Source: Candidatus Bathyarchaeota archaeon (GTDB lineage Archaea; Thermoproteota; Bathyarchaeia; Bathyarchaeales; Bathycorpusculaceae). From it: a stretch of DNA of 64,000 bases. Position 1 is the first letter of the stretch. Every line of letters begins with the position of its first letter. The translations under genes were made by a program, and so were the position numbers. The notes beneath the pieces are model-generated. The model was not told the DNA's origin, ran no database searches, and saw only the letters and a list, made by a program, of their open reading frames with translations. The stretch spans positions 64,001-128,000 of the forward strand of contig CAWDYC010000007.1 in NCBI GenBank assembly GCA_963806535.1, in the 5' to 3' direction. Of the stretch, positions 24,048-55,331 are shown one piece after another.

Positions 24048-25328
24048 TTACTTTTGGTTCCAATAAATATTGTATGCTGAAACGAAAGCAGTAAAGTCTT
24101 TAGAGTCTATTTTGCCGTCATGATTAAAGTCCGCCGCAGGATTAACATAGCCATTATTCCAATAAGAATTGTAAGCTCGCGAGAAGGCTATAAAGTCATT
24201 TCCGTCAACTCTAAAGTCGCCATTCAAGTCGCCTTTAGGAGTTACCCCGAGTGTTATTGGCGAAAAAGTGTTAGCCTGCCCCGATGAAGACTCAACATAG
24301 GCAGTAATCGTATAGTTTCCTATAGGCAAGTTTTCGCTGCCCAAAGAGCTGTTTATAATTATTGAGTTTCCGCTACCTAAAGTCTCCGTTCCATTGTATA
24401 TTAAGGTTGAAAAGTTTTTGGAAGTTGCAATCAAGTGAAATTGCGCGGTCTCTGAAGAGCTGCCCTTATTCTGCAATGAAATGCCTACGGGGAATGTAAA
24501 ACCGGACTCCACAAGAGATTGCTGCAGCATAATGTTAGTAACTGTAATGTTTGAAGGTGAAGAAGCAGTGGTAGCAGAATCAACAGGATTTATCAAAAAT
24601 ACAGGGTCAGCAAACCAACAATTGGCATTTGCTGATACATCACGCCCTTCAAACCAAGGAACCACAGAATCGATCTGAACAGAACTACATGAATAAGGTG
24701 CAAAGGGCAATGAATTAGACGAAATTGTAACATAATTATAATACGTAGTTGGAACTGTCAAATCCCAAGTTATCTGCGTCCAATCTTGACCCCAATGAAC
24801 ATAAGTTATTCCTCCCGTAAAACTGCTATAATCTTGTTCGATTTCTGCATTTTGCGGGTGCCCTGCTTGATGCCCCGCAGTATCAACAGTGGCTATTCCA
24901 TAACCCAAATTACTATGAATGTAAAAGTCTAAGCCTATTTCTGCTCCAGAATATTGACTGTTACTTGTGTAGGTTGCAGTTTTTATCCATGCCGAAAACA
25001 CAATATGGTCGCCTGGTTTAACGTTGAGCCAAGCTCCGTCAACCTCTCTTGTACCCCTAACATAGTCTGGTCCCGTCCGAATACTAACATCACCATTATG
25101 AAGAGTGCCATAATCAAGAGACGCATAAGAAGCAGCTGCACCATTCATATCAGGATAGAAGGCACTAATAGGTTCCAAATTTAGTGAAGAAGAGGGGGAA
25201 ACCGTAGTTGTACTATGAACAAGCAAAGTCAAGAACGGAAATAATGCCAAAACCACAAGAAACAACAAACAAAAAGATTTACGACTATTCTTAATTACGC
25301 ATCCCCTCATCCCGTAATCCTCAAACAT
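24048..25328 (-). CDS. Secreted protein: CBM-like beta-sandwich + CARDB-like domain + C-terminal dockerin
   Basis: Signal/TM segment; duplicated Ca-loops GDLNGDFRVDGND and ADFNHDGKIDSKD. Confidence 0.8.
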   Translation of the reverse strand: MFEDYGMRGCVIKNSRKSFCLLFLVVLALFPFLTLLVHSTTTVSPSSSLNLEPISAFYPDMNGAAASYASLDYGTLHNGDVSIRTGPDYVRGTREVDGAWLNVKPGDHIVFSAWIKTATYTSNSQYSGAEIGLDFYIHSNLGYGIATVDTAGHQAGHPQNAEIEQDYSSFTGGITYVHWGQDWTQITWDLTVPTTYYNYVTISSNSLPFAPYSCSSVQIDSVVPWFEGRDVSANANCWFADPVFLINPVDSATTASSPSNITVTNIMLQQSLVESGFTFPVGISLQNKGSSSETAQFHLIATSKNFSTLIYNGTETLGSGNSIIINSSLGSENLPIGNYTITAYVESSSGQANTFSPITLGVTPKGDLNGDFRVDGNDFIAFSRAYNSYWNNGYVNPAADFNHDGKIDSKDFTAFVSAYNIYWNQK

Positions 25329-25506
25329 AGCCTGAGGGCTTTCCTTTGATGCTAAGGCTAATTTGCTTTATCTACATAGAATATATGGAAAATAGGAGCC
25401 ACAATAGTTGGAAGATTTACTCGTTGAGATTTTTTGTTGTAATTAAATAGACCAAAGGTATTCTTTTCGGCAAATTATAAAAACCTTATAAGACTTAGTT
25501 AAAGCA

Positions 25507-26142
25507 GTGCAAAACATGGCTTCATCGCTAAAAAAGTTTATACAAGAAATCGCTGGAAAAAAAGCCCCAGGACCATCAACTACATTCACCGTATTCCATG
25601 TTTTCTATTCTTTAGAGCTAATGTCTCAGAAACCTATAGGCAGAAACAAATTAGCCAAGAAACTAAATGTTGGAGACGGAGCTGTACGCACAATAATAAG
25701 TAGGCTCAGAAATGCCCGTTTAATTGAAACCTCAAAAGAAGGATGCAGTTTAACAAAAAAAGGCGCAGATATTTGGAAGCAATTTGAGGAGATTTTTCCC
25801 AAACGCGTCGAAATCGTGAAATCTGAACTAAATCAATCTGATAATAATTTTGCTTTTCTAGTTAAAAACAGTGGACAAAAGGTACAATCTGGAATTGATC
25901 AACGAGACGCAGCTATAATTGCTGGCGCACGTAAGGCCCTAGTTATCGTTTTCAAAGAGGGGCATTTACGTATTGAATCAGTCAGCAATTGCATAGAGAA
26001 AGAATACCCAACGGCGGCAAACCAAATTCTTCAAGAATTAAGCCCTGAGGAAAACGATGTCATCATAGTTGCTGGCGCGGATTCAGCTTTTAAGGCTAAA
26101 CGTGGAGCTTTTGCAGCCAGCTGGTCACTTATTACCGCTTGA
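25507..26142 (+). CDS. wHTH regulator, DUF4443-like
   Basis: IGRNKLAKKLNVGDGAVRTII HTH; SGIDQRDAAIIAGA. Confidence 0.75.
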   Translation: MQNMASSLKKFIQEIAGKKAPGPSTTFTVFHVFYSLELMSQKPIGRNKLAKKLNVGDGAVRTIISRLRNARLIETSKEGCSLTKKGADIWKQFEEIFPKRVEIVKSELNQSDNNFAFLVKNSGQKVQSGIDQRDAAIIAGARKALVIVFKEGHLRIESVSNCIEKEYPTAANQILQELSPEENDVIIVAGADSAFKAKRGAFAASWSLITA

Positions 26143-26144
26143 GT

Positions 26145-27990: not shown

Positions 27991-28743
27991 CTACCCGAAC
28001 ATGCCCTTTATATAATTTGTAGTCAATTCACTTTCAGGCTTCTCGAAAAGAGTTTTGGTTTCATTGAACTCAATAAGCTCACCAACATACATAAAAGCTG
28101 TATAATCGGAAACCCTTAGCGCTTGCTGTAAGTTATGTGTAACTATTATAACAGTGTATTTTTCTTTAAGCTCTCCGACAAGGGATTCGATTCTTGAAGT
28201 AGCAGCTGGATCTAATGCGCTGCAGGGTTCATCCATCAGAATCAGTTCAGGTTCAGCAGCCAATGCGCGGGCTATGCACAGCCTTTGCTGTTGCCCACCT
28301 GAGAGACAAAAAGCGCTTTCATTCAATCGATCTTTTACTTCATCCCACAACCCAGCGCCTATAAGGCTATTTTCGACAATTTCCTTAAGTTTTTCTCCTT
28401 TCGCCGTGTTATGTATTCTAGGTCCAAAAGCTACATTTTCAAAAATTGATTTTGGGAATGGATTTGGTTTTTGAAAAACCATTCCAATTTTTCTCCTTAA
28501 GTCGTAAACATTACTATCGTCTCCATAAATATTTTGACCGCCAAAAATTATTTCGCCTGAGGTTTTGCAGCCAATAATAAAATCATTCATTCGATTAATT
28601 GACCGCAGAAGTGTTGATTTACCGCATCCTGAAGGACCCATTATAGCAGTTGTTGCATTTTCTCTTATTCCTATATCGACATCTTTCAGAACATGATTGT
28701 TTTTGAACCATAGATTGAATTTTTTTGTTTGGACTTTTCCCAA
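27991..28743 (-). CDS. pstB: Phosphate ABC transporter ATP-binding protein
   Basis: [45 protein letters not shown]; TTG start after GGAGG. Confidence 0.95.
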
Positions 28744-28983
28744 GTTTCCTCCTCCGGGTGACGAGTTGGCATTAACAAATGGTTTACCGTCCTTTCGTGT
28801 CTCAATTGGCTTCGATAACAATATTTGGTCTCCTTGGCATTTCTGCTGAAAATGTGAGCTCGTTTGGTTATATTGGTTTCCACAATAGGCATTATAGTAT
28901 ATATATTCTGTTTAGGCAACGAATTTATTATATAATTCATGAATAGGACACATACTTGCTAGCTTATTATGTGAGAAGGATCA

Positions 28984-30024
28984 ATGGTGTGGCAAACGAA
29001 ACAAGATGAAGAAACAAGAAAGGTCCAATTTACTGGCGGCTCAACTTATATTATTTCTCTTCCCAAAAGATGGATCTCTCAAAATCGAATAGAAAAAGGA
29101 AGCTTTATAAAATTACGTGAGGAAGAAGGCGGACTCTTAACAATTGTTCCACCAGGTTCATTAATTCATAACAAATTGGAAGAAGCAGTAATAAAAGTGT
29201 CTCTTGATGATGATTCCGAATCAATCACTCGAAAGATGGTGTCTGCCTATTTAGCAGGTTATGATTCAATTTACGTTAAAGCAGACAAACAGAATTTTTC
29301 AAATAAGCAAAGGCATGAAATGAAAAATTTTGTTCGACACATGCTTGTTGGAACCGAAATCGTAAGCGACACTTCCAATCAATTAATCTTGCAAGTTCTC
29401 TTAAGTTTTCCTGAATTGACCATTCAAAGCGCTTTAAGAAGAATGAGCATAATCACCAAATCGATGCACAATGACGCTGTAACGTGTATTACAACAAACG
29501 ATAAAGGACTTGCCAAAGAGGTCGTATCAACAGATAATGAGGTAGACAGATTCAATCTTTATGTAACTAGACTTTTGAAGACAGCCGTATACAGCCCACG
29601 ACTAATCAAAGAAATTGGGCTTCTAAACGGAGACGATTGTTTAGGATATCGCCTGGTAACAAAGTATGTTGAACGCACTGCTGACCATGCAGTGAGGATA
29701 GCAGAAAATGCATTGAACCTCAAGAGTACTCCAAATCATGAAATCACTCAAAGAATTGAAAAAATGAGCACAGCTGCCATAGAAATGTTTAGCAACGCAA
29801 TGGAATCGTTGTTTAGGCAAGACTACAAAGGCGCAGAAAAAATAATTCAAAGTCTCAAACAGCTTATAGACTTTGAAAAAGATGCCGTGTTGTTGTCTCA
29901 GTCAGATATAGAGCAAGATGCTATTTTGCGTTTGATTATTGAAAGCATAAAGAGAACCGCTGAATACGCGTGCGATATTTCGGAGATTGTTCTAAATTTG
30001 ACTATTGGTTCAATACTCGTGTGA
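28984..30024 (+). CDS. phoU: Archaeal phosphate uptake regulator (AbrB domain + 2x PhoU)
   Basis: RKVQFTGGSTYIISLPKRW AbrB domain; DNEVDR, ERTADHAVRIAE, RTAEYACDISE. Confidence 0.92.
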   Translation: MVWQTKQDEETRKVQFTGGSTYIISLPKRWISQNRIEKGSFIKLREEEGGLLTIVPPGSLIHNKLEEAVIKVSLDDDSESITRKMVSAYLAGYDSIYVKADKQNFSNKQRHEMKNFVRHMLVGTEIVSDTSNQLILQVLLSFPELTIQSALRRMSIITKSMHNDAVTCITTNDKGLAKEVVSTDNEVDRFNLYVTRLLKTAVYSPRLIKEIGLLNGDDCLGYRLVTKYVERTADHAVRIAENALNLKSTPNHEITQRIEKMSTAAIEMFSNAMESLFRQDYKGAEKIIQSLKQLIDFEKDAVLLSQSDIEQDAILRLIIESIKRTAEYACDISEIVLNLTIGSILV

Positions 30025-30030
30025 TATGAT

Positions 30031-30558
30031 ATGGCCGAAGAATTTCGCAGTTATTTTTCGGAGTTTAAGAAAAATTTCGTCACTAAGATTGAAAAGTATA
30101 CTTCCAATAGGGTGATAGTTACAGATGTATTATCGAAACTTGTTATGACATTTGGGGTAGTTCTAATTATTGGTGGACTTTACTTAATGCTTTTCAATTC
30201 AGGGACTTCTCCTGAATCTAGCATGTTAGCAGTATCCACCCTTGGTTGGATTCCGGGAATTCCTTTCAGTGTTGGCGACCTATCTCAGCGGGGAACATCA
30301 GTTGTTGGACTGGCTTCTTGGGTCATAGGCGTTGATCTTCTTTTAGTCGGATTGGGTTTCTGGGTAAGAAACAAATTAGCTCGTTTTATTGGCATGGCAA
30401 TATTTATGTTAGCAACAATTTTTCAATTTATAGGCTTCCTTTACGCTGGAATAATTGGCTCGCCCAGTTCGGCTGTTGGCTTTTGTGTGAACGGAGTCTT
30501 AGTATTTTTCTTATTCTCTAGATTTGATTTAGAAAAGAATCAGATAAAAAGTATTTAG
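30031..30558 (+). CDS. Hypothetical membrane protein (about 4 TM)
   Basis: Hydrophobic helices; 6 bp after phoU. Confidence 0.65.
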   Translation: MAEEFRSYFSEFKKNFVTKIEKYTSNRVIVTDVLSKLVMTFGVVLIIGGLYLMLFNSGTSPESSMLAVSTLGWIPGIPFSVGDLSQRGTSVVGLASWVIGVDLLLVGLGFWVRNKLARFIGMAIFMLATIFQFIGFLYAGIIGSPSSAVGFCVNGVLVFFLFSRFDLEKNQIKSI

Positions 30559-30755: not shown

Positions 30756-32729
30756 TTAACTCGGGCTATTGTAAGATATATAAGAGTTCATGAAAACAAT
30801 AAAATCCTTGGAGGTTATTTTTCCATCCTGATTAAAATCGGCTAAACCATTATAAACACTGAGATTTACTCGGTTAAAACCTACGTACGCTCCAGCAAAT
30901 GATATAAAGTCGTGACCATCAACTTTGAATTCACCGTTTAAATCACCTAAATATGTTATCTCCGCCATCTCTATTGTCGTATTCTTGGAATTAATGCTAG
31001 CTGTTATTGTGTAGTTTCCGACAGATAGGTTGCTCGTGTCTATTTGGGAAATAGCATTCGATGAATTATCGCTTATTACGACCGTATCGTTATACTCAAG
31101 TTTGTCGTTGGCGTAGATTTGAATCGTATTGGAGCCGTTTTGAACTGGTACGTTGATTGATAGCGGGAAACCTTTTTCAGTGTATGTATAATTAAGCGGT
31201 GATTCATGTTGACTATTGCCTGTATACATGTATATTCGATTTGTTGGTAATTGTCCAAGAAAATTTGCATCGACGACGGAATTCCAATCAGAAGCAAAAG
31301 TAACATTCCAAACGCCGATTTTGTTGAAGTAGAGGGATAGTGGCGTTGACCCATACAAGAAAGTTAGGTTGCCTGTTGCTGCTATCGGAATTAGGACGGA
31401 GTTTGAGCTAAAGTCTATTGCGGTAAGATCCTTATCAATTATATTGTAGTTGTATTCATAGTGAAGTTCTTCGAGAGGTACGGCCAGCTTAGCTGTTGTT
31501 TGTATTATTGCCAAATTAATCAGCAGATTTGCAGCAAGCGCTGTAGCTGAGTCGCTAGGAACTGCGTCTGAACGGATTCTGTATAGTCCAGTAGATTGAT
31601 CATAAAGCCCTGCTGAAGGGTCACTAAGCAAACTCCATGCTGGTATGTTCAGATTGCTTCCTGTTGTAATATTGTATGCTGCGCCGTTTAGCATTTCCTG
31701 AATTTTGTTTTGATCAGATGGGGGAAGCAAAGGATAAGTTGCGATTATTGATTGCCACGTCATTTGTGTGTTTTCAAGTCTTCTCTGTGAATTCGAGTCG
31801 GCATGTTGGACCACATAGTCGAGCCATTGGGGACTATTCCATAAGCTAGCTAAGTATCGGCTATGTATGTCTGTTAATAAGTTCTGTGTATTTGTAATAT
31901 TGGAATCATAGTTATACAACTTCCAAATTATTTGTTCAAAGCCGCCAGCTTCACATTCATAGAGCCCGTTAGCGGAAGTATATCCGTAGTACGCTCCGTT
32001 CCAATAATGCGCATTTTCGAAATTCCACAGGTCAACTGACCGATTTAATGCTTGAGAGATGCCAAACCTGTAAAACTCCAAATATCCATCAAGAGATTGA
32101 CCAGTTTCATCGTAATACCTTCCTGTGTAGGGTGACGCTGTGTTATCCCCGCGAATCCAAAGTGGTGGCGTTCCATAACTTGCCTGACTATATTTAACGG
32201 CAGTGTCATAGCTATTGTAAGCCAAAGTTATATTCCATTTAGATAAGTCATATTGATATTTGGCTGCCCAATAATATCCATATATCAAATACCTATCATA
32301 AACACAAAAGCATTGCAAACCTTGCAAATCATAAAATTCAGCTGGCAAATCATTAGCCATCAAAGACGCAGCATCAAGGGCACGTTCTATAGTTGTTTGG
32401 TTTGCCAAATTGTATTTGTCAACCACAGCATACCAATACATTATTGAATTCCAATCTGAACTAGGTAAAGCGTCAATCATAGTTTGAAATTCTTGTGGCG
32501 TTACCGTCCCTATGCTCAGGCCCATATATGCGGTATCTAAGTCTTTAGTAAAATTAGTGTTGCTGACAAGATTCTTTATCGTGTTAGCTAATGTAGGATT
32601 ACTGACGGAATCACCAAGGGTGGGTGTAATTGATATCATACTGGTGAGAAATACAATTATCAAACCTACTACTAGGATTTTCCTGTAATTTAATCTTTCA
32701 GCTTTAAAAATGCCTGGAATATGAGACAA
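30756..32729 (-). CDS. Secreted helical (possible alpha/alpha-barrel GH-like) protein with C-terminal dockerin
   Basis: Signal peptide; Tyr/Trp-rich core (RYYDE, YECEAG); GDLNGEFKVDGHD and ADFNQDGKITSKD. Confidence 0.75.
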   Translation of the reverse strand: MSHIPGIFKAERLNYRKILVVGLIIVFLTSMISITPTLGDSVSNPTLANTIKNLVSNTNFTKDLDTAYMGLSIGTVTPQEFQTMIDALPSSDWNSIMYWYAVVDKYNLANQTTIERALDAASLMANDLPAEFYDLQGLQCFCVYDRYLIYGYYWAAKYQYDLSKWNITLAYNSYDTAVKYSQASYGTPPLWIRGDNTASPYTGRYYDETGQSLDGYLEFYRFGISQALNRSVDLWNFENAHYWNGAYYGYTSANGLYECEAGGFEQIIWKLYNYDSNITNTQNLLTDIHSRYLASLWNSPQWLDYVVQHADSNSQRRLENTQMTWQSIIATYPLLPPSDQNKIQEMLNGAAYNITTGSNLNIPAWSLLSDPSAGLYDQSTGLYRIRSDAVPSDSATALAANLLINLAIIQTTAKLAVPLEELHYEYNYNIIDKDLTAIDFSSNSVLIPIAATGNLTFLYGSTPLSLYFNKIGVWNVTFASDWNSVVDANFLGQLPTNRIYMYTGNSQHESPLNYTYTEKGFPLSINVPVQNGSNTIQIYANDKLEYNDTVVISDNSSNAISQIDTSNLSVGNYTITASINSKNTTIEMAEITYLGDLNGEFKVDGHDFISFAGAYVGFNRVNLSVYNGLADFNQDGKITSKDFIVFMNSYISYNSPS

Positions 32730-32741
32730 AGAAGCAATCCT

Positions 32742-36977: not shown

Positions 36978-37121
36978 GTTTAGCCTTTCTCCAAGCAAGT
37001 TGGCTGGTGAACAATCTATTTACCACTTCTCCAAATAGAATCAATAGAGCTAAAGCTAATTTATTTATCAATAGATTTTCATTAGACAATTGAAAAAAAT
37101 ATGTTTATTGAATCTTGTTTA

Positions 37122-40606: not shown

Positions 40607-40797
40607 TATCCCCTTTTCCTCATTTGAATGATAATCGACCTAGGTTTAAGTCGATTCTTCCTTCCCTTGGTTTTAAGAAGACACATTGAGCCTTTTCTAT
40701 CTTTATTAAATAAACTATAGAGAAATCAATAGTTGGATTTCCAATAAATATATCAACCAATCATTAAGAAATAATGTTGTTAGGTGAAAGTTGGTTC

Positions 40798-41412: not shown

Positions 41413-41591
41413 AATTGTTCATGCTCTTCCTATTTGTTGTTTTTAAGATTAAGTTAGAAGATTATTTAGCCTGTTGATATTATTTTATATATAATATAGA
41501 CTCTTTAATCGTGGAAGGTTAATGCAGATTAAGATCGATTAGCCATAGAAAAAGGCCATTCAAGAAAATATTGGTTCTGAGGGTAAAAAAA

Positions 41592-42467: not shown

Positions 42468-42622
42468 TTTTGTTCCCTTCTTTGTTGGATTTCGTTATTA
42501 GCCATGGATTATATGGCTTCACGGTTAGTCAAGCTGGATGCAAGAAAGCCTATTGTATGTTGAGTTTGTAATTTCTATAGATAGCAATAGTTTTCGTTTA
42601 AGATATTTAGAAAGAAAAGAAG

Positions 42623-44678: not shown

Positions 44679-44700
44679 TTTCTATCACTCAAACTTATTT

Positions 44701-46929
44701 TTAATGTGTTGCGGATGCTTCGATGGCTAATGTGGCTGATTGCTGTGGGCTGAATGGTAATCCAAGGTTTTGTGGCAAGTCGCTATATATGTTAACATTG
44801 AGTGTTGCTGGTCCTACGAATGCCCATGTTGGAATTTGCAAAGTAATGCTATAGGTTGCAGTGTTTGTGCTTCCGGCTATGCCGCTGGTGGCTCCATTAA
44901 TTGATTCTACCATGAAGTATTTTTGGACTGGTACATTGTTTGCGTCCATAATTGTTGCGCCGATATAGAACGTCATGTTGCTCCAGTTTGAATTAGTGAC
45001 TGTTACATTTGCATTTACTGTGTTGCCTGTTGTACTGTAGCGATTGAACATTGGTCCGTATAATGCACTCATGTTGCCGTCACTGTTTGTGATTACTACG
45101 GGTTTCAGTTCTAATAGGTACCCATAGTAGAAGGCGCATGAGTCATTGTATGTTTTTTCCGAAACGTCGACTGATGATGTTATGTTAACGGTGCCAAAGT
45201 AACTTGTTGGATTGCTGTCTTGCCATGGAAGTCTGTACGAAGCTGTAGCGATTCCGTTTGTGTCGGTTTGACCTGTAGCATAATCGATGTATTGACCTTG
45301 GAGATATACGTTGAATGTTACTGTTTTGTTGACAACTGGTGCACCATTGTAGGTTACTTGGGCAGTTATGTTAACTTGTTGCTGTGGACCGAATGAGTTT
45401 GCACTCATGTTCCAGCCTTGTCCGCCGTTTTGTGTCCAAATGTCTAATTGTCCGCCTGTGTAGGGTACAAGTACTTGGATATTTAATGTTGCTACGCTTG
45501 TGCTAGTGTAGGTGGGTGCTGATTGTCCATCGACATCAGGTGCAGTAACTGTTAAGACAGCTGTTATGTTTCCTGTCATAGATCCCACTTGTGCAGGTGT
45601 AAGGTCTACCTGTTGTGAATTGGCAACGGTTAAGACGGTTCCGTTTACAAGTGTAATACTCCATGCTGAGGTCATTATTGGATCGGTCTCTCCTGGAGGA
45701 ACTGTGTCGTGACCTGCTACGGAAGTGATTGCGCTTAAGCTGATTGGAACGTTGTAGTATGTTTTGGCAATACCGTTACCGAATGGGCTGTTAAGTACAG
45801 TGATTTTTGCTTGAGGTCCTGCTGCGGATAATGGGGCCCATGTGTAAGTTGCACCATTTAGGTTTACTGGACTGATTGTGTTGTGTGGATAGTTGGAATC
45901 TAGTAGAGTTGGACTTCCTGCAACTAAGTTGATAGAGGCGTTTCCAAAGCTTATTACAGTGAAGCTGAGAACTGCTAGGTTGCCTGATGATGCACTTGGG
46001 TGAGTGTAGGTTTTTAGAGCATCTACGATTTGGCCTTCAACTACGCCGTTTGTGTTGTCAATGTTGCCGGCAAGGAACCATGTGGTGTTAGTTACGCCTG
46101 AGTTTAGGAATGAGCCTTCAGTAATGCTGGTTAGTTGAAGCACTGTTGGAGTCCATGTTAGGCCTACGTTCCATGACCAAACGTTTGGTGCGCTTGAGAT
46201 GTTCATGTCAACATTGAAGGTTGTACCGACTGGGTTGACGTTTGAGGGTACGGTTATGGCTGGATTTGAGGTTCCGCTTGCCCACAGGTTGATAGCTGTG
46301 ACAGGGGCTGCAACTGAGACAGATGCACTATTGCATTGTGCGGCTGTTCCTGCGTCGCTGCTGGTTGAATATAGTGTCATGCCGCTAATAGTTATTGGAC
46401 TATTACCGTAACCGACAACTATAAAGGTCAATTGTACAAGAATGCCTGAAGAATTGGTGTTTACGAAAGAGCCTTTGAGAGCTTCACTGAAGCCACCGTT
46501 GAGGGTTCCAGCAACGTTGTCAATTAAGCTTGGGTCGTCGCCGATGAAGTTAGTTCCTGATTTTGCTGGATAGGCTGTGTTGTTACCTAGCCAACTTTGG
46601 CCGTTAATGCTTGTCTGTGTTGAGGCGCCTTGTGAAAGACTTGTCATGTTGAGGACTGCGGGATTCCAAGATAGAGTTGCTAATGAATATCCCCATACGT
46701 TCGCTGCATTGTCGATTCTAACGTCGATAGATATAGTTGTACCGATTGGGTTCGGGCTAGAAGGTATGCTAATGCTATTCACATTAGTAGTACCTGTTTG
46801 CACTGCACTTATTGCGCCAGTGGAAGCTACTGCTCCAACTGTGCCTAGTGCGGCGAGCATGGGCGCTAGCATAAAAATAACTAGCGCGAATGCTATGATG
46901 GATTTTCTGTTATTGCGGTTTAGATTCAT
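44701..46929 (-). CDS. Scaffoldin-like protein: 2 cohesins + PKD-like + Ig-like domains (paralog of 38495-40606)
   Basis: Two WNPAVL/WTPTVL...EGSFL-type modules; DIWTQNGGQG..FGPQQ..VTYNGAPV..YRLPW domain. Confidence 0.78.
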   Translation of the reverse strand: MNLNRNNRKSIIAFALVIFMLAPMLAALGTVGAVASTGAISAVQTGTTNVNSISIPSSPNPIGTTISIDVRIDNAANVWGYSLATLSWNPAVLNMTSLSQGASTQTSINGQSWLGNNTAYPAKSGTNFIGDDPSLIDNVAGTLNGGFSEALKGSFVNTNSSGILVQLTFIVVGYGNSPITISGMTLYSTSSDAGTAAQCNSASVSVAAPVTAINLWASGTSNPAITVPSNVNPVGTTFNVDMNISSAPNVWSWNVGLTWTPTVLQLTSITEGSFLNSGVTNTTWFLAGNIDNTNGVVEGQIVDALKTYTHPSASSGNLAVLSFTVISFGNASINLVAGSPTLLDSNYPHNTISPVNLNGATYTWAPLSAAGPQAKITVLNSPFGNGIAKTYYNVPISLSAITSVAGHDTVPPGETDPIMTSAWSITLVNGTVLTVANSQQVDLTPAQVGSMTGNITAVLTVTAPDVDGQSAPTYTSTSVATLNIQVLVPYTGGQLDIWTQNGGQGWNMSANSFGPQQQVNITAQVTYNGAPVVNKTVTFNVYLQGQYIDYATGQTDTNGIATASYRLPWQDSNPTSYFGTVNITSSVDVSEKTYNDSCAFYYGYLLELKPVVITNSDGNMSALYGPMFNRYSTTGNTVNANVTVTNSNWSNMTFYIGATIMDANNVPVQKYFMVESINGATSGIAGSTNTATYSITLQIPTWAFVGPATLNVNIYSDLPQNLGLPFSPQQSATLAIEASATH

Positions 46930-46966
46930 TTTTGGTTTTCTCCTTTCATGTTTTCAGTTTGAATGT

Positions 46967-48436
46967 TTAGTGGGTTGGGTTGTAGTTTGTGAAGTAATAG
47001 ATGTAAGCTCCGCTCCATTGGATGAAGTCTGTTCCGTCAACCTTTCCGTTGGCATTAATGTCTGCCATTGGGTTGTAGACTGCTCCGCTGCTAAGGTAAT
47101 AGTGGATATATGCATCGCAGAAGTAAATGAAGTCTGTACCAGTAACTTTGCCGTCAGGAATATGTTGAGTTTGACCTGAGAGTGGTGTGTATGCAGCGAG
47201 GTTTGAGTCAATTGGGGTTCCTCCGCTTAAGTCTGCGCGGCTCATTTCGATGTAGTTTTGGTCATTTACGAAGTCGCTTGCTCCGCCATTGGTTGTGTTG
47301 TACATCTTCATGTATGCAATCCAAACGCCTGCTTCAAGAGTTGGTCCTGTTTTTGGAATTTGGTTTGGTATTACTTCCCATAGCCATCTCCATGCCTGGT
47401 ATTGGCCTGTTGCTGCTACACCTTTTATTCCAGAATAACCGTAGATTACATCAGCTTTTGTTGGTTGAACTGCTGGTCCCCATGTGAAGCCATTTGTACC
47501 CCATGAGCTGTTGTATTGGAAGGTTGATTGGGGTAGATGAGCAACATTGAATGCGATGTTTATCTGGTTCATGCTGAATGATAAGGCATATCCTAGTGAT
47601 ATGAAACCGATACAGTCGGATAATGAACCGATGTTGCCAGCCTGAACTGTGTCTTTAATATTGATGTTTTCGGTGCATGGAATGTATGATGCTGTTTTAG
47701 TAGGGTCGTAACCAGTGACAATGCCTGCTGAGTTCTTCAGGAGGAAGCTGTTTTGGTTTGGAGCTCCAAAGTAGTTGTTGAAGCAGTCTGCTGTTCCGGA
47801 TGTTGGGTCTCTCATTGCACGGCTAATTGGTTCTGATAATGCCGCTGTAGGAACGCCTGCGGTTGATAAGCCCCAGAAAGTGAAGAAGTCATTCCAAGTG
47901 CTAAATGTAGATGCTGTTTGGCCGAGTTCATTTTTTGGAGTGGCTGCAAAGATACTGCATACTTGCAATGTTGTCAGGTTCTGTGGGAACCAAGAAGCCA
48001 TATCAGGGCTAATGACAATAGAGACACTGTCAATTGCTACAGCCCATGTTTGCATGTTAACCATGTTTGCATCGCCGTATTCAGCGGAAGTGCTTTGTGG
48101 AGGTCTGGACATTTCGCCGATATCAGCTGAGCTGTTTGACAAGTTTGGAATTGCTGTTCCGCTACCGAGTCCCTCGAGAGAAATTGGGGAAGTAATATTA
48201 TTAGCGCCCCAAGAAGGATTCCCGCCGTTGAGATTATTCCACCAACTCGGGAATGAGCTTGCTTCTTCCGCCGCAATTGGCAGAACGGTGCTTGAGCCTT
48301 TAATTGTCAATGTAGCTGGATTAACTAAGTGTCCGCCATCAAATGTAGTGGTTGCGCTTGCTAAAGTTGCCGCTGCAGAAACTGCCATCATAACTATTAA
48401 TGCTAGGCATACTAAATACTTAATATTTTTATTCAA
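46967..48436 (-). CDS. pstS: Phosphate-binding protein PstS with C-terminal dockerin
   Basis: IKGSSTVLP, GSGTAI, DIGEMSR, VAIDSV, RDPTSGT, IGFISLGY; PDGKVTGTDF and ADINANGKVDGTDF. Confidence 0.88.
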   Translation of the reverse strand: MNKNIKYLVCLALIVMMAVSAAATLASATTTFDGGHLVNPATLTIKGSSTVLPIAAEEASSFPSWWNNLNGGNPSWGANNITSPISLEGLGSGTAIPNLSNSSADIGEMSRPPQSTSAEYGDANMVNMQTWAVAIDSVSIVISPDMASWFPQNLTTLQVCSIFAATPKNELGQTASTFSTWNDFFTFWGLSTAGVPTAALSEPISRAMRDPTSGTADCFNNYFGAPNQNSFLLKNSAGIVTGYDPTKTASYIPCTENINIKDTVQAGNIGSLSDCIGFISLGYALSFSMNQINIAFNVAHLPQSTFQYNSSWGTNGFTWGPAVQPTKADVIYGYSGIKGVAATGQYQAWRWLWEVIPNQIPKTGPTLEAGVWIAYMKMYNTTNGGASDFVNDQNYIEMSRADLSGGTPIDSNLAAYTPLSGQTQHIPDGKVTGTDFIYFCDAYIHYYLSSGAVYNPMADINANGKVDGTDFIQWSGAYIYYFTNYNPTH

Positions 48437-48673
48437 TTTAGTTTTCTCCTTTCATTATCATGTGAACGATAAGTCGTTCAAAGTGAATATTGAAGCGGAG
48501 ACAATATCTAGCTTCCCGATGTAGTTTACGTTAGACAATTTAGCCTATAGGTTTTAGAAAGCCCTATGGAGAAAACATTACTCATCTACACTTACTATTA
48601 AGAATAAATAGAAAAGCGTTATCTTAGCTGCACTCACCTTTTGCGATTAGTTTGCGAGGAGAATAAGGGCTTT

Positions 48674-49561
48674 ATGAACACCAAAGTGTTTAAGGAAAAC
48701 TTGATTAAAGCCTTATTGTTTTTCTGTGCAATCTCCTCAATTGGCATAGTTTTTTTCATAATTTTCTTTTTGCTAAATAGCGGATACCCAGCAGTTATTC
48801 AGTGGTTTAGCCATGGATTTAATAGCATCCAAGGTTGCTATATTATTGAACTTACATACGACTCGCTATATCTTGCTCTGGGGGGAACATTATTAGCTAT
48901 TATTATTGGACTTCCTTGCGCAATTTATCTTGCAGAGTTCGCAGATAACAGATTAAGAAATATTGTAAAGCCTGCTCTAGAAGTACTTAATGGTTTTCCT
49001 TCAATTGTCATTGGAATAATAGGGTTTACAGTTTTATGCCTTAATTTGCCAAGTTTCGGATTTAGAGCTAGTTACAGCACTTTGGTTGGCTGGATTGTTC
49101 TCGGAATAATGTCATTGCCAGTAATAACAAGTGTTTCGGAAGATTCCTTAAGAGCTGTCCCTGATGAAATGAGAGAAGCCTCACTTGGACTGGGCGCCAC
49201 TAGGTGGCAAACAACCACTCAAGTATTGCTGTCAAGCGCATCGCCAGGAATCATTACAGCAATAGTATTAGGGTTTGCAAGCGCAATTGGAGAGACTATG
49301 GCAGTAATTTGGGTTATTGGCGGAGCTATGCCTCCACCACTTACACTAAATCCTTTAGTTCGAACTTACTCTATTACAGCTTGGATAGCGAACGTAGCAA
49401 CGGGGGATACATTCCAACCTGGCACTATTCTGTATCAACAGGTATTCGGTGCCGGAGTCATTCTTTTCGGAATTAACGCGTTTGTAGTTCTAGCTATTAG
49501 AAGGATATCATCAAGCAGATCTAAAACGAACTTGGGCATTGCGGAGAAATCTAAGAAATGA
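48674..49561 (+). CDS. pstC: Phosphate ABC transporter permease PstC
   Basis: AIYLAEF, GFPSIVIG, SEDSLRAVP..REASLGLGATRWQT, AIGETMAV. Confidence 0.92.
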   Translation: MNTKVFKENLIKALLFFCAISSIGIVFFIIFFLLNSGYPAVIQWFSHGFNSIQGCYIIELTYDSLYLALGGTLLAIIIGLPCAIYLAEFADNRLRNIVKPALEVLNGFPSIVIGIIGFTVLCLNLPSFGFRASYSTLVGWIVLGIMSLPVITSVSEDSLRAVPDEMREASLGLGATRWQTTTQVLLSSASPGIITAIVLGFASAIGETMAVIWVIGGAMPPPLTLNPLVRTYSITAWIANVATGDTFQPGTILYQQVFGAGVILFGINAFVVLAIRRISSSRSKTNLGIAEKSKK

Positions 49562-50973
49562 TTCTAAATCCGCAATTAAGAATTTCAAAGATTTCAAAAT
49601 ATTTAAAGAAAAGAGAAAAACCTTGTTTGATTAACGGATCTCTATTATTTGCGGCAGGCATAATTGTAACTATACCTGGGTTTGTTCACCTTTTCAACAG
49701 CTTACTAATTGATGGGTTTGCTCTAGCAACTTTCGATAAATTAATGGCTGATACTGCGGCTTCAGTACTCTTGATATTGCCAGCTCTAATAGTGTTTTCA
49801 ACAGGATACCTACTCTTGGAAGCCCAGTCTTTGGGTTGGAAACTTTCTATTGCAACTTGTCTAGTCGCCGTATTGTTAGGTGGCTTTGGTTTCTTGAGCG
49901 TTGAATTAGCGTTTATAATTGGAGTCTTAAGTGGCTTGGCAGCTGCGATGGAAATTAGATATCGGAAAAATAGAAATGATCAAAAAGATTCAGCGTTAAT
50001 AACAGAAAACGTTGTGAAATTAGGTCTAGCGTTGTCTGGGGCAATTTGCATAGTAACTCTTGCCGGCATGATTATTTATTTAGCTGTAAGAGGTTCATTG
50101 TTTTTCTCATGGAATTTTTTTGCTGGGCAAGATTTCGGTATGACTTACGCAGCAAAAGTTATTTCAGGTAAGGTGCCTGGCGGTTCGCTAAATTCAATTG
50201 GTGGATTCCTGCCGTACGCATTGGGTTCTTTACTCTTAGCGGGTCTTTGCGAATTGATAGCATTACCGATCGGTATTGGAGGAGCAATATACCTAGCTGA
50301 ATACGCTGGAAAAAATAGATTGACGTCTACAGTGCGTTACTTCATAGAAACGCTTGCGGGAATCCCCTCTATTGTCGTTGCGTTAGTAGGAGCTACCGTC
50401 TTTGTTGTTCTGTTTCAATGGGGTTATTGTGCTTGGGCAGCGGCTATATCATTATCTTTTATGATTTTGCCTTGGAATATTCGAATAGCAGAAGAAGCGA
50501 TTAGGTCAGTGCCAGCCGCATATAGGGAAGCTTCTTTTGCCTTAGGGGCTACAAAATGGCAGACTACGAGCAAGGCTGTGTTATTCGCCGCCTCACCTGG
50601 AATAATAACAGGCGTTCTCTTGGGTTTTGGTGAAGCCCTTGGTGAGACAATTGTTATTGCATTGACCGCCGGTTATGTGCCTATTTCCAATTTGAACGAG
50701 TACGGTCAGCCGATAATTCAAGGATGGACGGTTTTGCCGTCTGTAGCACATCTTTTTTCAACGCACACCACGATTACAACCCTTCCGATTTTTATTTGGC
50801 AAGCGCCAAAACTTTTGACTTTTGGTACGGGAGCCAGCGGCACAAGCTTGTCTTTCATGCAGTATGGATTAGCGTTGGCAGCTGGTTTTTATCTGGTAAT
50901 GATATACCTTGTAATCTGTGCTATTGCTCTTGTTGCGAGAAACTATTTAAGAAAAAGAATCCTAGGAAAGTAA
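49558..50973 (+). CDS. pstA: Phosphate ABC transporter permease PstA with N-terminal TM extension
   Basis: AIYLAEY, LAGIPSIV, EEAIRSVP..REASFALGATKWQT, LGET. Confidence 0.9.
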   Translation: MILNPQLRISKISKYLKKREKPCLINGSLLFAAGIIVTIPGFVHLFNSLLIDGFALATFDKLMADTAASVLLILPALIVFSTGYLLLEAQSLGWKLSIATCLVAVLLGGFGFLSVELAFIIGVLSGLAAAMEIRYRKNRNDQKDSALITENVVKLGLALSGAICIVTLAGMIIYLAVRGSLFFSWNFFAGQDFGMTYAAKVISGKVPGGSLNSIGGFLPYALGSLLLAGLCELIALPIGIGGAIYLAEYAGKNRLTSTVRYFIETLAGIPSIVVALVGATVFVVLFQWGYCAWAAAISLSFMILPWNIRIAEEAIRSVPAAYREASFALGATKWQTTSKAVLFAASPGIITGVLLGFGEALGETIVIALTAGYVPISNLNEYGQPIIQGWTVLPSVAHLFSTHTTITTLPIFIWQAPKLLTFGTGASGTSLSFMQYGLALAAGFYLVMIYLVICAIALVARNYLRKRILGK

Positions 50974-50977: not shown

Positions 50978-52450
50978 ATGAAACATCATAAAAGATCTTT
51001 TGCCAAGTTTATTGGAATAATAATGGTAGTCCTATTCTTAGTCTTACCATATACAATTCAATTTACTCATGCCCAAGCCAGTGGAAACGACAAATGGGCA
51101 TTAAACTTCCAAATTATGAATGCACAAAACGCCACTTCCACAACTTTCGCGCCTTTTGATGAAATCAAATTTAGCGCAAATGTAACCTATTCCAACGCCT
51201 CACAACCAGACATACTTGTAACCTTCAAGGTGCAAGGACCTACTGAATCACAAAACCCAATAAATATCACCCGAATAGCAACAACAAGCTCAAGTGGCGA
51301 AGCCGAATGTTCGTTCTTCTTACCAATAATGAACCAAAACAATAATTCAGTAACTGGGACTTGGCAAACCACCGCAACCATACGAACAAGCAACGGCACC
51401 ATTCAACAGAATCAGGATTTCACCACTCAATGGAAGCTGGAAATTAAGTCAATTAGCATAAAAAATTCTCAGAATCAAAACCAATCAATCTTTTACCCAG
51501 GAAATACCTGCGGTTTGCTGCTGGAATTGAAAAACAATGGACCATCACAAACGGCAAACATAACCCTTACCATGCAAGATTCAACAGGCAAGGTAATCAA
51601 CCAGACACAAATTGAAAATACTCAAGTGGAAACAACAACCACCAATTCAACACAAATCCAAAGCAGCATCCAAATACCTAACTCAGCGCTGACAGGTGAA
51701 TCTACAATTACAGGTGCAATTTACGCTGGAAACTACAATTATTCAATGTTGCCAGCAGGCGAAAATAAAACAGCATACTTTACAATTACTGGCAATATTG
51801 CACCTTCAACGACTGCTATTCCGACTCCCTCACCGACAGTGGAAAACGCGATGGGTCTATTCTCGTGGCTTCTAGTTGCAACAGGGCTATTTACATTCAC
51901 AGCATTATTTATGTTCTTGAAACGAAAAACCATTCCTGGAATTAACACTCAAATTCCAATAACTCCAGCGCCAACATCCAACCAAATCACAACAACCCTA
52001 CCGCCCCAACTATTAGAGCAACAACCGACTGGACAAACCGCATTGCTAGTTACACCAACAGCCAAAGTAGCCTCCGAAAAAACAGTCAATGCAACGCTGC
52101 CAATATCATTACCTAGCATTTATGAGACTCTAAATATGCCAACTTCAGAATCAACAAATCCTCAAGAACAAAAACAAATAATAATCAACCAGCTAACCAA
52201 AATTTCCAGCGCCAGCCAAAGAGTTCAAGCACTAGAATCTGCACTTAAAATAGAAAGAGAACAGCTCAGCAAAGAAATAGCAACTCTTACCAAAACACTT
52301 GAGGAACAAGAAAGAGCGGTCAAAAACTACTTCGACACAATAAAAGAAGAAATAGCAAAGCTAAACTCTAACCCAAACAGCGATAAGGAAGAAAATGCGC
52401 CTTCACAAAATAGGGTAAATCAACAACTTAAGAAAGATGGCGAGAATTAA
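50978..52450 (+). CDS. Single-pass surface protein: Ig-like ectodomains, TM, P/T/Q linker, cytoplasmic coiled coil
   Basis: Signal peptide; FAPFDE..ANVTY domain shared with the scaffoldins; TM followed by KRK; heptad-rich C-terminus. Confidence 0.75.
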   Translation: MKHHKRSFAKFIGIIMVVLFLVLPYTIQFTHAQASGNDKWALNFQIMNAQNATSTTFAPFDEIKFSANVTYSNASQPDILVTFKVQGPTESQNPINITRIATTSSSGEAECSFFLPIMNQNNNSVTGTWQTTATIRTSNGTIQQNQDFTTQWKLEIKSISIKNSQNQNQSIFYPGNTCGLLLELKNNGPSQTANITLTMQDSTGKVINQTQIENTQVETTTTNSTQIQSSIQIPNSALTGESTITGAIYAGNYNYSMLPAGENKTAYFTITGNIAPSTTAIPTPSPTVENAMGLFSWLLVATGLFTFTALFMFLKRKTIPGINTQIPITPAPTSNQITTTLPPQLLEQQPTGQTALLVTPTAKVASEKTVNATLPISLPSIYETLNMPTSESTNPQEQKQIIINQLTKISSASQRVQALESALKIEREQLSKEIATLTKTLEEQERAVKNYFDTIKEEIAKLNSNPNSDKEENAPSQNRVNQQLKKDGEN

Positions 52451-53224
52451 TTTATTTCAATTTCACATCTTTTTAATCCAAAATTAGCCTCTCAAAATCA
52501 CGCATCTTTATTTTAATAATATTTGGACAAACTGCTTAAGAAACTTATTCATAATCAACGTTTTAAATAAAAATGAGGAAAAGGGGCCATTACCAAAAAC
52601 AAAATTAATTTAGTGAAATGGCATTTTTCCTCATTTGCCTTCTCCAATTTCTCCAGTTGACAACTAAGCGAGCAATCGCTATTTGATACTTGTCAATATA
52701 GAAAATGAAATACAAATAGTCTTTGCGAAATCTATTTAGTGATTAGAATTCTAAAACCTAAATTAATATTAAAAAAAAATAATCAATCCAATTTCAAGTT
52801 ACGGCAATGTAGTATCTGTATAACTTATGTCTTTAAGACTTATTTGCGATGTTCTTTCCTCAAAATTGAGGCTAACCATAATTATGTCCAATTCATTGCC
52901 CTGTTCCAATTGCATACCGAATTAGATAAACCAAAAGAATTTCAAGAGCGCAGGATGAGAGACCACAAAAACGTACTTAGCGAAGTAAAATTCAGAGATC
53001 TAAGAAAGTGAAAAAGTGGAGAAAGTGCTTTCTCAGTTTACACTTTCTCGCCGAAGCAAGTGGCAGCAGAGAAAATGCTAAACAAGAAAGTCTTATGAAT
53101 GAATTTGCATTAATTTTATCTTTTTCAACTAAATAGTTTGCAAAAAAACTATAGCGCATCATTTTCTATGGCGAAAGGTGCTTTATATGTACATCTCCCC
53201 TGTGCAAACAGGAGAAAGGTGAAA

Positions 53225-55331
53225 ATGAAGAAAACAGGAAAGGTAATGGGAATTATAATAGTAATGTTGATCGCGTTTTTTAGTGCATCATTCATTGCTA
53301 CATCAAACGCCTCAGGAACAAGTCAAGTCACCATATACAATGGAGCAAATCAAGGCTCAATAGACTACAAAGTTGACAATGTACAATATTCAACACAGCA
53401 AACATTTACTTGGACACAAGGAAGCACACACACAATACAAGGAATCCAAACAACTATCGGAAACCAACTACAACTTTCACCAGCAGGAGACTTTTATGTA
53501 GATGGCAGCTATATTTATACTAACGTCTTAACATATACAGTTCCAACACATGATGGTTCAGTCTTCATAGATTCATCAACAAAATACGGAATTACTTTTA
53601 ACACCAACGGAATTGGATCAGTTACACCATCAGGATTCGGATGGTATGACCAAAGTTCAATAGACGCTGTTGCAACCCCAACAAATCCTAGCCAAGTCTT
53701 CACAGGATGGACATTTGATCCAACTTTTGAAATTGACGACCCTTTGAATCCAGCGCAGACTGTTTACATTAATGGATACGGAACAGTAACTGCAAACTTC
53801 TATCAACCACCTGCATTAACAAGTACAATAACAATAACGAATCACGCTGGAACAGGAAGTACAAACTACAAAGTTGACAATATACAATATTCAACGCCAC
53901 AAATATTCACATGGGAGCAAGGAAGCATTCACACTATTACTGGAGTCACAACTATAAACGGTCAAGAAAGATATGTTCCAACTTCAATAGACAGTGGAAT
54001 AACACAACCCACTACATATGTAACAGATCCATGCACTTACACTGTCCCAACATATGATGAACACATTTGGATAGCACCTACCACACAATACGCAGTAAAC
54101 TTTAACGTAAATGGACTTGGCACAGTAACCCCTTCAGGACAAAACTGGATTAATCCATGGGCAAACATCACGATTTCCGCCACACCAGCAGTTGGTCAAA
54201 GATTTACAGGTTGGACAGCTACAAGTGACTATGGAGACGTCTACTTCCTTGATGCATCTGCAGCATCAACAAATGTCTCAATAGGCGATCTTAACACAGT
54301 TATCACAGCGAACTTTGCACCAATGCCCACAAGTCAAATTACAATAAATAATAACCAAGTAACTTATCAAATTGATGGGAGCAACTATTACTCTTCAAAC
54401 GGTCAAGTCTTTAATTGGATTCAAGGAAGCACACACACAATAACAACATCTGAGAGCATTTTCGGTTTAACTATGAAATACACACCTACGGGATTTATTT
54501 CTCCAAGCATAGGCTCTGTAAGCGGAAATACTTTAACCTACACAGTTCCGACAACAAATGAAGCTGTAAATATTGCATCTAATGTAAGCTACTGGGTAAC
54601 TGTAAATGCCAACACAAGTGGTTCAGTATCTCCGTCAGGTTCAACATGGTATTCAAATGAGCAACGAGTTCCTATAACTGCAACTCCAAACACTGGTTAC
54701 ACAATTCGTGAATTGGGTAATAACACCAGATGACGACACAACAATTGACAGCTTAACATCTGCTTCTACAACTGCCACTATGGGCGGCCCATGTACAATA
54801 ACAGCTAATTTTGCCCAGGTTCCGTCAACACCAGTTCAAATTACTAATGTTCAAATTCCATCAATTGCAACTCAAACAGGCTTTATGATGCCAATAAATG
54901 TCACTCTAAATAATCCAGATTCAGTATCTGAAACCGCAAATGTTCAAATAAATGCTAACGGAACATCTGTGTTCAGCGACACAATTACATTAAGTGCAAC
55001 ACAAACCGAAACAGTCCCATGCTACTTTAACGCAAGCGTATTAAGCATAGGAAATTACACCTGGATAGCAACTATAACCACCACAAGTCTGTCAGGTACA
55101 CCATCAACATCAACAACTGGACAAATGGCAGTGACTTATTTAGGCGACATCAATGGAGACTTCAAAGTTGACGGCAAAGATTTTATTGCTTTTTGCGGCG
55201 CATATGTTCAATATTGGCAAGTCGGCGGTTCGCACCAAGTTGATCCTGCATCAGACTTCAATCATGACGGCAAAATAGACGGCACTGATTTTATCGCTTT
55301 CAACAGTGCATATGTCAGTTATTGGGAGTAA
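53225..55331 (+). CDS. Secreted repeat protein (InlB-B/Flg_new-like repeats) + CARDB-like domain + dockerin; one +1 frameshift near 54702
   Basis: Three modules ending G.V.PSG..W....ATP....F..W....ANF; removing one A restores GYTFVNWVI; GDINGDFKVDGKD and SDFNHDGKIDGTD. Confidence 0.78.

Follow-up and report, generated by a model that had tools for sequence, protein, structure and literature searches.

In bacterial cellulosomes (Acetivibrio/Clostridium thermocellum CipA with SdbA/OlpB; A. cellulolyticus ScaB), secreted dockerin proteins with duplicated Ca-binding loops are found together with one- or two-cohesin proteins, some of which are anchored to the cell. The same arrangement was found in the archaeal DNA analysed here, a window of 64,000 nucleotides (positions 64001-128000 of contig C7 in a 2.95-Mb genome of 12 contigs, 91.75% complete), where it is encoded by a gene island inside a phosphate-uptake (pst) operon. 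The cohesin profile of the island matches ScaB and SdbA best, and its dockerin profile matches cellulosomal dockerins best. The features that define a cellulosome, dockerin-borne glycoside hydrolases and a multi-cohesin scaffoldin with a carbohydrate-binding module (CBM), are absent from the island, to judge from its sequence. It has no recognised glycoside hydrolase, its conserved passenger is a binding protein of an ATP-binding cassette (ABC) transporter, none of its proteins has more than two cohesins, and no CBM was found on any cohesin protein. Its anchors are C-terminal membrane helices and not SLH domains or sortase, and its genes are located inside an archaeal pst operon.

The nearest precedent comes from anaerobic methanotrophic archaea (ANME), in which dockerin proteins are commonly ABC-transporter binding proteins of the NikA/OppA and TroA types, as stated in the dockerin text of Chadwick et al. 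(2022, PLoS Biol, PMC9012536). The S4 Data of that paper include a single ANME-2a entry in which a PstS domain (TIGR02136, 252.9 bits) precedes a type I dockerin (residues 284-339). This is a domain-table record without locus analysis; PstS is not named in the dockerin section, and this section and the conclusions passage of the paper give no operon linkage to cohesins. The Bathyarchaeia fusion described here is different: it forms a separate, diverged subfamily with a degenerate first dockerin loop, and it comes with cohesins in the pst operon, conserved synteny and a conserved promoter. The literature searched, as far as its text was covered, contained no account of a PstS-dockerin operon or of a pst operon that includes its own cohesin partners. 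The cohesin profile of the island also matched the cohesin of Archaeoglobus fulgidus (2xdh, E 0.0062), which is likewise archaeal and non-cellulosomal. To our knowledge, the A. fulgidus cohesin-dockerin pair has no assigned function and no transporter linkage, whereas the Bathyarchaeia island offers a specific passenger and an operon context. We know of no function assigned to non-cellulosomal cohesins and dockerins, archaeal ones above all, in the decades since they became known. Binding proteins of archaea and Gram-positive bacteria are tethered to the membrane by a lipid anchor, or by a membrane helix and a linker, and so stay near the permease where there is no closed periplasm. The dockerin tether proposed below would perform the same task, but it would be non-covalent and modular, with several binding proteins per anchor and exchange of cargo.

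The host is an uncultured soil or peat Bathyarchaeia archaeon with a second phosphate-uptake operon. The window contains archaeal marker genes (MtrH, a corrinoid protein, FrhB-type domains, a GPN-loop GTPase and AbrB-PhoU fusions), and in public records the relatives of the key PstS-like protein are labelled Candidatus Bathyarchaeota or Bathyarchaeia. We consider that the island is probably an accessory phosphate-uptake system, in which the binding protein of a divergent Pst importer is held by a cohesin-dockerin joint and not by a covalent membrane tether. Six dockerins are encoded in the window, together with eight cohesin modules on six secreted proteins. A search of the genome with hidden Markov models (HMMs) made from the window modules revealed only two more dockerins, two more cohesins and one broken cohesin elsewhere; two proteins on contig C3 each have both a cohesin and a dockerin, and the broken cohesin is on contig C4. 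The island holds six of the eight dockerins and eight of the ten intact cohesin modules of the genome, and this clustering is not due to chance. The original prediction, made from the sequence of the window, had described eight cohesin-like modules on six proteins, and these were borne out by Pfam for some of the modules and by comparison of the module profile with solved chains. The ten genes from 30756 to 48436 which it had placed in one co-oriented block between pstB/phoU and pstC/pstA are indeed all on the minus strand, and the members of its polyphosphate neighbourhood (CYTH, ppk1 in two frames, the CHAD protein, ppx and ppk2) were all found. The six dockerins that it had listed are also present, with the correction that the sixth gene (53225-55331) is frameshifted and has its dockerin in the second frame.

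The gene at 46967-48436 (minus strand) codes for a PstS-like binding protein of 489 amino acids. A signal peptide is its sole hydrophobic segment, and its C-terminus is formed by a dockerin (46970-47173) with a degenerate first Ca loop. The protein matches PBP_like_2 (Pfam) and the PstS family model TIGR02136 (ptsS_2), and its profile scores place it as PstS-like, in a diverged subfamily and not as a canonical PstS member. Its AlphaFold model, based on 38 homologues, had a predicted local distance difference test score (pLDDT) of 87.5 and a predicted template modelling score (pTM) of 0.86. When the model was compared with solved structures by Foldseek, all rows to rank 47 were phosphate-binding proteins (PstS, PhoX and DING-type), the best being 4jwo with E 2.4e-13; the target TM-scores across those rows ranged from 0.46 to 0.76. 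As modelled, the protein has a type II periplasmic-binding fold with phosphate binders as its nearest relatives. Four motifs were invariant or conserved in at least 90% of the 38 homologues: GSST (47-50), GSG (91-93), MSRP (109-112) and R209-D210-x-T-S213-G214-T215. In E. coli PstS, the anion site consists of a Ser/Thr-rich N-terminal loop, the Ser of G-S-G, and the Arg and Ser-Gly-Thr of R-x-x-x-S-G-T. Together with one HMMER alignment, this suggests that the GSST, GSG, MSRP and R-D-x-T-S-G-T motifs may correspond to the anion-binding loops of that protein. The canonical PstS of the same genome, encoded on contig C4, lacks a dockerin and is tethered through a membrane helix at its N-terminus and a long Pro/Thr linker, whereas its paralogue in the window has only the dockerin, which is therefore a candidate replacement for the tether.

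The dockerins were examined with Pfam Dockerin_1 (PF00404), for which the cut-off is 22.9 bits. In protein scans, three of the six window dockerins reached it (24048-25328, 30.3 bits; 43698-44678, 28.8 bits; 54708-55331, 25.0 bits), and two were just below it (32742-36998, 20.7 bits; 30756-32729, 20.1 bits). In the six-frame scan, 32742 scored 33.5 bits with its neighbours in frame and 30756 scored 23.5 bits; over the whole genome, the six-frame Pfam scan detected six dockerins, five of them in the window. In the modules of 24048, 30756, 32742, 43698 and 54708, both 12-residue Ca-binding loops (D-x-N/D-x-D-G ... D) and the helices are present. A profile of the eight dockerins of the genome matched solved dockerins first (4fl4, 7.6e-8; 2yik; 2y3n; 6kg9) and generic EF-hands after them. 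The module at the end of the PstS-like protein (residues 427-483) was related to the others by tblastn, with 51% identity to 43698 (E 1.6e-11), 47% to 54708 (E 7.9e-11), 46% to a contig C3 protein (E 1.2e-9) and 42% to 30756 (E 6.5e-7). The NCBIfam model dockerin_GC gave it 26.9 bits, below the cut-off of 29. According to the alignment, its second Ca loop is intact (DINANGKVDGTD) and both helices are kept, and the segment at 46970-47173 does not show two tandem Ca-binding segments. As it has one loop only, keeps the helices and is homologous to the other dockerins, we classify it as a divergent dockerin and not a canonical one.

The eight cohesin modules of the window are mutually 20-50% identical. 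The tighter type A comprises those of 37122, 38495b, 41592 and 44701a (39-50% identical), and the looser type B those of 38495a, 40798, 42623 and 44701b (about 30% identical). In a six-frame scan with Pfam Cohesin (PF00963, cut-off 24.1 bits), five of the window modules were matched, three above the cut-off and two below it, and at E<=1 the family matched seven of the ten modules of the genome. The modules missed by Pfam are up to 48-50% identical to matched ones, except for 38495a (~30%). A profile of the ten modules was compared with solved chains, and all 17 matches were cohesins, with ScaB (3l8q, 1.3e-13) the best and SdbA also listed.

All the genes for cohesin proteins are on the minus strand. 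In the window, as in most relatives, pstS-dockerin is immediately followed by 44701 (44701-46929); its product has a type A (46309-46812) and a type B (45835-46296) cohesin, followed by an MG2/CARDB-like module (Cohesin, 32 bits). A complex prediction for these two cohesins (residues 36-372) and the PstS dockerin (412-489) gave no support (score 0.01, mark 0.32) in a run without controls, a result that speaks neither for nor against binding. Next to it, 43698 (43698-44678) combines an MG2/CARDB-like module with a dockerin (43701-43904; Dockerin_1, 28.8 bits); its homologues are located between cohesin genes in relatives and are present at 12 of the 17 related loci introduced below. Two proteins have C-terminal membrane helices behind Ser/Thr/Pro linkers in the hydrophobicity scan. 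They are 42623 (42623-43747), with a type B cohesin (43112-43600) and a PKD domain (PKD_4, 65.3 bits; Cohesin, 18.2 bits), and 41592 (41592-42467), with a signal peptide and a type A cohesin (41847-42317). A homologue of 42623, defined by the best match to its cohesin and by a C-terminal helix, occurs at 7/17 loci, and type B homologues at other loci also have C-terminal membrane helices. The short 40798 (40798-41412) consists of a strongly hydrophobic N-terminus and a type B cohesin (40813-41298; Pfam Cohesin, 31.9 bits). Several of its homologues at other loci carry a C-terminal membrane helix, but 40798 was rejected as a truncated anchor protein, as no membrane-helix remnant was found downstream and its close homologues at L023 and L027 are equally short. 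The secreted 38495 (38495-40606) has a type B (40076-40507) and a type A (39578-40033) cohesin, a Pro/Thr linker and an MG2/CARDB-like module (Cohesin, 24.8 bits), and the secreted 37122 (37122-38498) has a type A cohesin (37866-38351) and a C-terminal MG2/CARDB-like two-domain module. The proteins 37122, 38495 and 44701 have neither an anchor nor a dockerin. The two-domain module, recognised through weak MG2 matches, is common to the C-termini of these three, the N-terminus of 43698 and the ectodomain of 50978, a membrane protein encoded downstream of pstA.

To follow the fusion in relatives, 7,999 candidates were scored, and 87 clusters of PstS-like homologues were retained at E<=1e-5, one of which is the window's own. 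Dockerins were called with our own HMM, which included the window PstS dockerin, at no more than 15 residues from the C-terminus. Such a C-terminal dockerin was found on 86 of the 87 clusters, and in the 38 aligned homologues dockerin residues are among the near-invariant columns. The profile of the PstS-like family detected 65 sequences at E<=1e-30, 132 at E<=1e-10 and 834 at E<=1e-3 among 1.84 billion representatives, and the PstS-dockerin subfamily is, by these searches, small and dedicated. A scan of species-representative genomes gave 17 related loci on 16 contigs. The pstC/pstA genes were found within 1 kb of the pstS-like gene at 14/17 loci and within the locus at all 17; a cohesin open reading frame (ORF) was within 1 kb at 14/17 and within the locus at 15/17. 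In the usual order, pstC, pstA and a 50978 homologue point one way, and pstS-dockerin, a two-cohesin protein, a 43698-like dockerin protein and the anchored cohesins follow one another in the other direction. The compact locus L029 consists of phoU, pstA, pstC, pstS-dockerin, a cohesin-dockerin adaptor, a cohesin-PKD protein with a transmembrane helix, a small membrane protein and pstB. At L017, L029 and L031, the cohesins are of type B only, and type A cohesins and most of the cargo differ between loci. At L032 (5687-8254), the PstS-like domain, a dockerin and two cohesins are found in a single open frame of 856 amino acids. Taken together, the sequence data make a strong case for a tie between the cohesin-dockerin set and phosphate uptake. 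An open frame of the same length as that of L032 was also seen in genome G004.

A divergent control region of 204 bp (48437-48640) separates pstS-dockerin from pstC. It contains conserved blocks, and a palindrome or hairpin precedes its Shine-Dalgarno sequence and TTG start. The region is unusually conserved in comparison with the proteins, which are only 40-55% identical. Its 10-mers, with one mismatch at most, recurred in up to 12 of 13 other loci; the maximum in 20 shuffles was 6. The alignment showed a block, GCTTTTCTATTTAT, and two boxes, TAGRCTAAATT and AAGCTAGATAT, which at their best-match positions are spaced 33 nucleotides apart at 13/13 loci, those of L022 being weak copies that have 2-3 mismatches. 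The hairpin TGAACGA-N4-TCGTTCA is followed by the Shine-Dalgarno sequence GAAAGGAGAAA and the TTG start, and four of its six pairs have at least one two-sided change. Genome-wide, the strict box pattern gave 60 single matches, against ~99 expected, and no pairs, and the palindrome GAACG-N5-7-CGTTC gave 3 matches, against 4.9 expected. With one mismatch allowed, boxes were scattered in the genome, and none was found before the canonical pst operon, pstB/phoU or ppk1. No phosphate regulon sharing the boxes emerged, as the genome search yielded no further copies before other phosphate genes. From the gene content, we infer that the island may be controlled by phosphate or PhoU; the PhoU control of the original prediction gained no support from the box search.

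If the island is an accessory phosphate-uptake system of the proposed kind, the PstS dockerin would plug into a cohesin, and many PstS copies would thereby be kept on flexible stalks near PstCA. A type B cohesin would be the most likely partner, since this is the only kind at minimal loci. The MG2/CARDB-like module shared by the three soluble cohesin proteins, 43698 and 50978 could extend the array. Other cargo, namely the Ig-repeat adhesin and the CBM-like, (alpha/alpha)6-toroid and InlB-repeat proteins, could sit on the same scaffold and bind the cell to particulate organic matter, and the imported phosphate could be buffered by the neighbouring polyphosphate enzymes. A wider generalisation is put forward here only tentatively: cohesin-dockerin joints might be a general, exchangeable tether for ABC binding proteins in envelope-poor microbes, and the island a dedicated "phosphate antenna", with its own conserved promoter as a switch, that supplies a polyphosphate store. 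In such an antenna, membrane-anchored and lattice-forming cohesin proteins would display many PstS copies and particle-binding cargo above PstCA. The function is directly testable, because the passenger has a known fold, its likely partners are adjacent, the importer is alongside and the arrangement recurs in relatives. If it is true, non-cellulosomal archaeal cohesins and dockerins would gain a concrete role in nutrient capture, and non-covalent docking would join lipid anchors and membrane helices as a third tether of ABC binding proteins. A phosphate-scavenging strategy of peat and soil archaea would also be indicated, and protein-assembly engineering would gain a new orthogonal pair in the divergent one-loop dockerin and its cohesin.

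Several observations weigh against accessory phosphate uptake by a docked PstS. In the window, pstB and phoU are 17 kb distant from pstCA, and two island genes, ppk1 and the InlB-dockerin gene, are frameshifted. In relatives, the pstS-like gene is in pieces at L025, L027, L030, L031, L032 and L033; these fragmented genes and the frameshifts may be due to decay or to assembly error. The distribution is patchy, which fits an accessory island: of 24 genomes sampled from the genus, 4 had the PstS-like protein, as did 3 of 200 further genomes from the family (E<=1e-30). To the same side belong the carbohydrate-like character of part of the cargo (24048 and 30756), the complete canonical pst operon elsewhere in the genome, and the divergence of the importer proteins and of the PstS dockerin. 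These last points are weighed below with the alternative that each of them favours.

The cargo bears on the first alternative, according to which the block is a general adhesion or glycan-processing scaffold, broadly cellulosome-like, with PstS-dockerin as one passenger and phosphate uptake not as its main purpose. The protein encoded at 24048-25328 (minus strand, 426 amino acids) has a signal peptide, an N-terminal jelly-roll-like domain, an Ig-like domain and a dockerin (24051-24254); the protein-atlas scores of its N-terminus to CBM_4_9/DUF4627 were 0.90-0.91, which is a lead only. At 30756-32729 (minus strand, 657 amino acids), a signal peptide is followed by an (alpha/alpha)6 toroid (residues ~47-406), two beta domains and a dockerin (30759-30962). 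Its AlphaFold2 model had a pLDDT of 86.4, and six Foldseek matches were obtained at E<=1e-3, the best to cellobiose 2-epimerase (4z4l, E 3.6e-4); the toroid is weakly similar to cellobiose 2-epimerases, mannose isomerase and enzymes of GH76, GH15 and GH127. The best protein-atlas score of its core, 0.78, was uninformative. The giant cargo protein at 32742-36998 (minus strand, 1418 amino acids; Big_15, Big_3) is built of Ig-like repeats and a dockerin (32745-32948). The gene at 53225-55331 (plus strand; Flg_new_2, 62.8 bits) codes for InlB-type B repeats, an Ig-like domain and a dockerin (55125-55328). It is split by a frame change near 54700-54735, in the third InlB-type repeat, into 53225-54733 and 54708-55331, with the Ig-like domain and the dockerin in the second part.

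The toroid in one of these proteins and the CBM_4_9-like lead in another suggest that part of the cargo could bind or process polysaccharides, and phosphate capture may, given such carbohydrate-like cargo, not be the only or the main role of the scaffold, which is probably multi-purpose. An adhesion or glycan scaffold would also account for the 1418-aa Ig-repeat protein and the InlB-type repeats, and for type A cohesins and cargo that vary from locus to locus. We nevertheless regard it as unlikely that this is the main purpose. The conserved core consists of pstS-dockerin, the cohesin genes, pstCA and 50978 and not of the glycan-like cargo, and at none of the 17 loci did the 10 kb around pstS-dockerin show a homologue of 30756. 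The minimal L017 and L029 have cohesins and PstS-dockerin but none of these cargo types, and no glycoside hydrolase family of Pfam or NCBIfam matched any cargo protein. The original prediction had proposed capture of phosphate or organophosphate rather than breakdown of cellulose. Its functional tie to phosphate uptake has been strengthened, because 46967, which that prediction had listed simply among the six dockerin proteins, is the PstS-type binding protein of the operon and both the fusion and the synteny, including the expected linkage of cohesin and dockerin genes to pst genes (pstC/pstA at every locus, cohesins at 15), are conserved. Organophosphate capture found no backing, as Pfam and NCBIfam scans detected no phosphatase among the cargo. 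The exclusion of polysaccharide functions is weakened by the toroid and the CBM_4_9-like lead.

The second alternative keeps the dockerin-tethered importer and assigns it a ligand other than orthophosphate, such as another tetrahedral oxyanion, phosphite, phosphonate, pyrophosphate or arsenate. The PstS-like protein is highly diverged, with 57.0 bits against a TIGR02136 cut-off of 206.6 and a match confined to profile positions 1-181 of 295, and insertions bring it to 489 amino acids. The permeases pstC (48641-49561, plus strand; TIGR02138, 186.1 bits, cut-off 196.45) and pstA (49558-50973, plus strand; TIGR00974, 183.8 bits, cut-off 193.45) are just below their equivalog cut-offs. With the binding protein far below and the permeases just below the family cut-offs, the ligand could differ from orthophosphate, and the genome already has a canonical operon, which is complete on contig C4 (phoU, then pstS pstC pstA pstB phoU). 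A different ligand is nevertheless improbable in our estimate. The family shows little or no variation in the motifs that we take for the PstS phosphate site, orthophosphate binders head the structural matches, pstB (27991-28821, minus strand; TIGR00972, 381 bits, cut-off 343.2), which codes for the ATPase of the phosphate importer, is an equivalog-level match, and polyphosphate genes are present at 8/17 loci.

The divergence of the PstS dockerin is the last of the unfavourable points: this sixth dockerin, with which 46967-48436 ends, escapes the Pfam Dockerin_1 scans, and it has lost the first Ca loop, in whose place stands QTQHIP-DGKVTGTD, a replacement also present in the family examples shown and in the family consensus. 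The least probable of the alternatives, in which this module no longer binds cohesins and is a Ca-binding or stabilising tail or has another surface partner, with the nearby cohesins reflecting shared island ancestry, would explain why the first loop is lost throughout the family and Pfam fails to find the module, but it agrees poorly with a module as conserved as the binding-protein core, with a cohesin gene following directly at 14/17 loci and with PstS, dockerin and two cohesins in the one open frame of L032.

The remaining genes of the island and its flanks are as follows. Between pstB and the co-oriented block, 28984-30024 (plus strand) codes for AbrB/MazE-like DNA-binding and PhoU domains (PhoU, 80.1 bits; MazE_antitoxin, 37.9 bits) and is a candidate regulator; a homologue of this AbrB-PhoU protein is present at the compact L029. 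It is followed by a gene for a small membrane protein (30031-30558, plus strand) with four hydrophobic segments in the hydrophobicity scan. A homologue of the latter adjoins pstB at L029 (phmmer, 1e-23) and matches DUF7144 with 22 bits, below the cut-off. Directly after pstA, 50978-52450 (plus strand) codes for a type I membrane protein with a signal peptide, an MG2/CARDB-like ectodomain, a Pro/Thr linker, a helix (294-312) and a cytoplasmic coiled-coil tail, and a homologue follows pstA at 15/17 loci. The polyphosphate genes comprise CYTH (56112-56651, plus strand), ppk1 in two overlapping frames (57692-58294, with PP_kinase_N, and 58255-59826, with the middle and C-terminal domains; plus strand), a gene for a CHAD-metallophosphoesterase-HD protein (59801-62143, plus strand), ppx (62128-63714, plus strand) and ppk2, which runs from 63795 past the window end at 64000 on the minus strand. 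In relatives, ppk1 is one ORF of about 720 amino acids. The PstA of the window has an extra N-terminal extension of ~150 amino acids with several hydrophobic segments.

Two of the related loci are labelled as bacterial in public records, L022 as "Limnocylindrales" and L029 as "Acidoferrum". Their contigs carry genes for the acetyl-CoA decarbonylase/synthase gamma subunit, ADP-forming acetyl-CoA synthetase, MetK and an AsnB-like protein, as in the window, and also for geranylgeranyl reductase, an IdsA-like prenyl synthase and an AF0577-type radical SAM protein. In view of these archaeal-looking genes, the two loci give no evidence that the island has spread to bacteria, and L022 and L029 are probably archaeal contigs mis-binned with bacteria. 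The MetK-type S-adenosylmethionine synthetase of the window is located at 22215-23468 (S-AdoMet_synt N, M and C), and the same gene was found on the contig of L022; archaea usually have another type of S-adenosylmethionine synthetase.

Off the island, a protein of 1040 amino acids on contig C3 (220973-224107) has a PKD-like region, a segment 52% identical to residues 363-488 of PstS-dockerin, and then a type A cohesin. The segment includes a dockerin of the one-loop PstS type, and the protein looks like a chimera derived from a PstS-dockerin-cohesin fusion. The second C3 protein (153711-156338, 874 amino acids) is secreted and combines a PQQ-type beta-propeller, an Ig-like domain, a cohesin and a dockerin in one chain. 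On contig C4, the cohesin-like gene at 526474-527125 is broken into two adjacent frames. Finally, the window contains at 2888-5044 an unusual fusion of an RnfD/NqrB-type membrane domain, 4Fe-4S ferredoxin domains and FrhB/FdhB N- and C-terminal domains.

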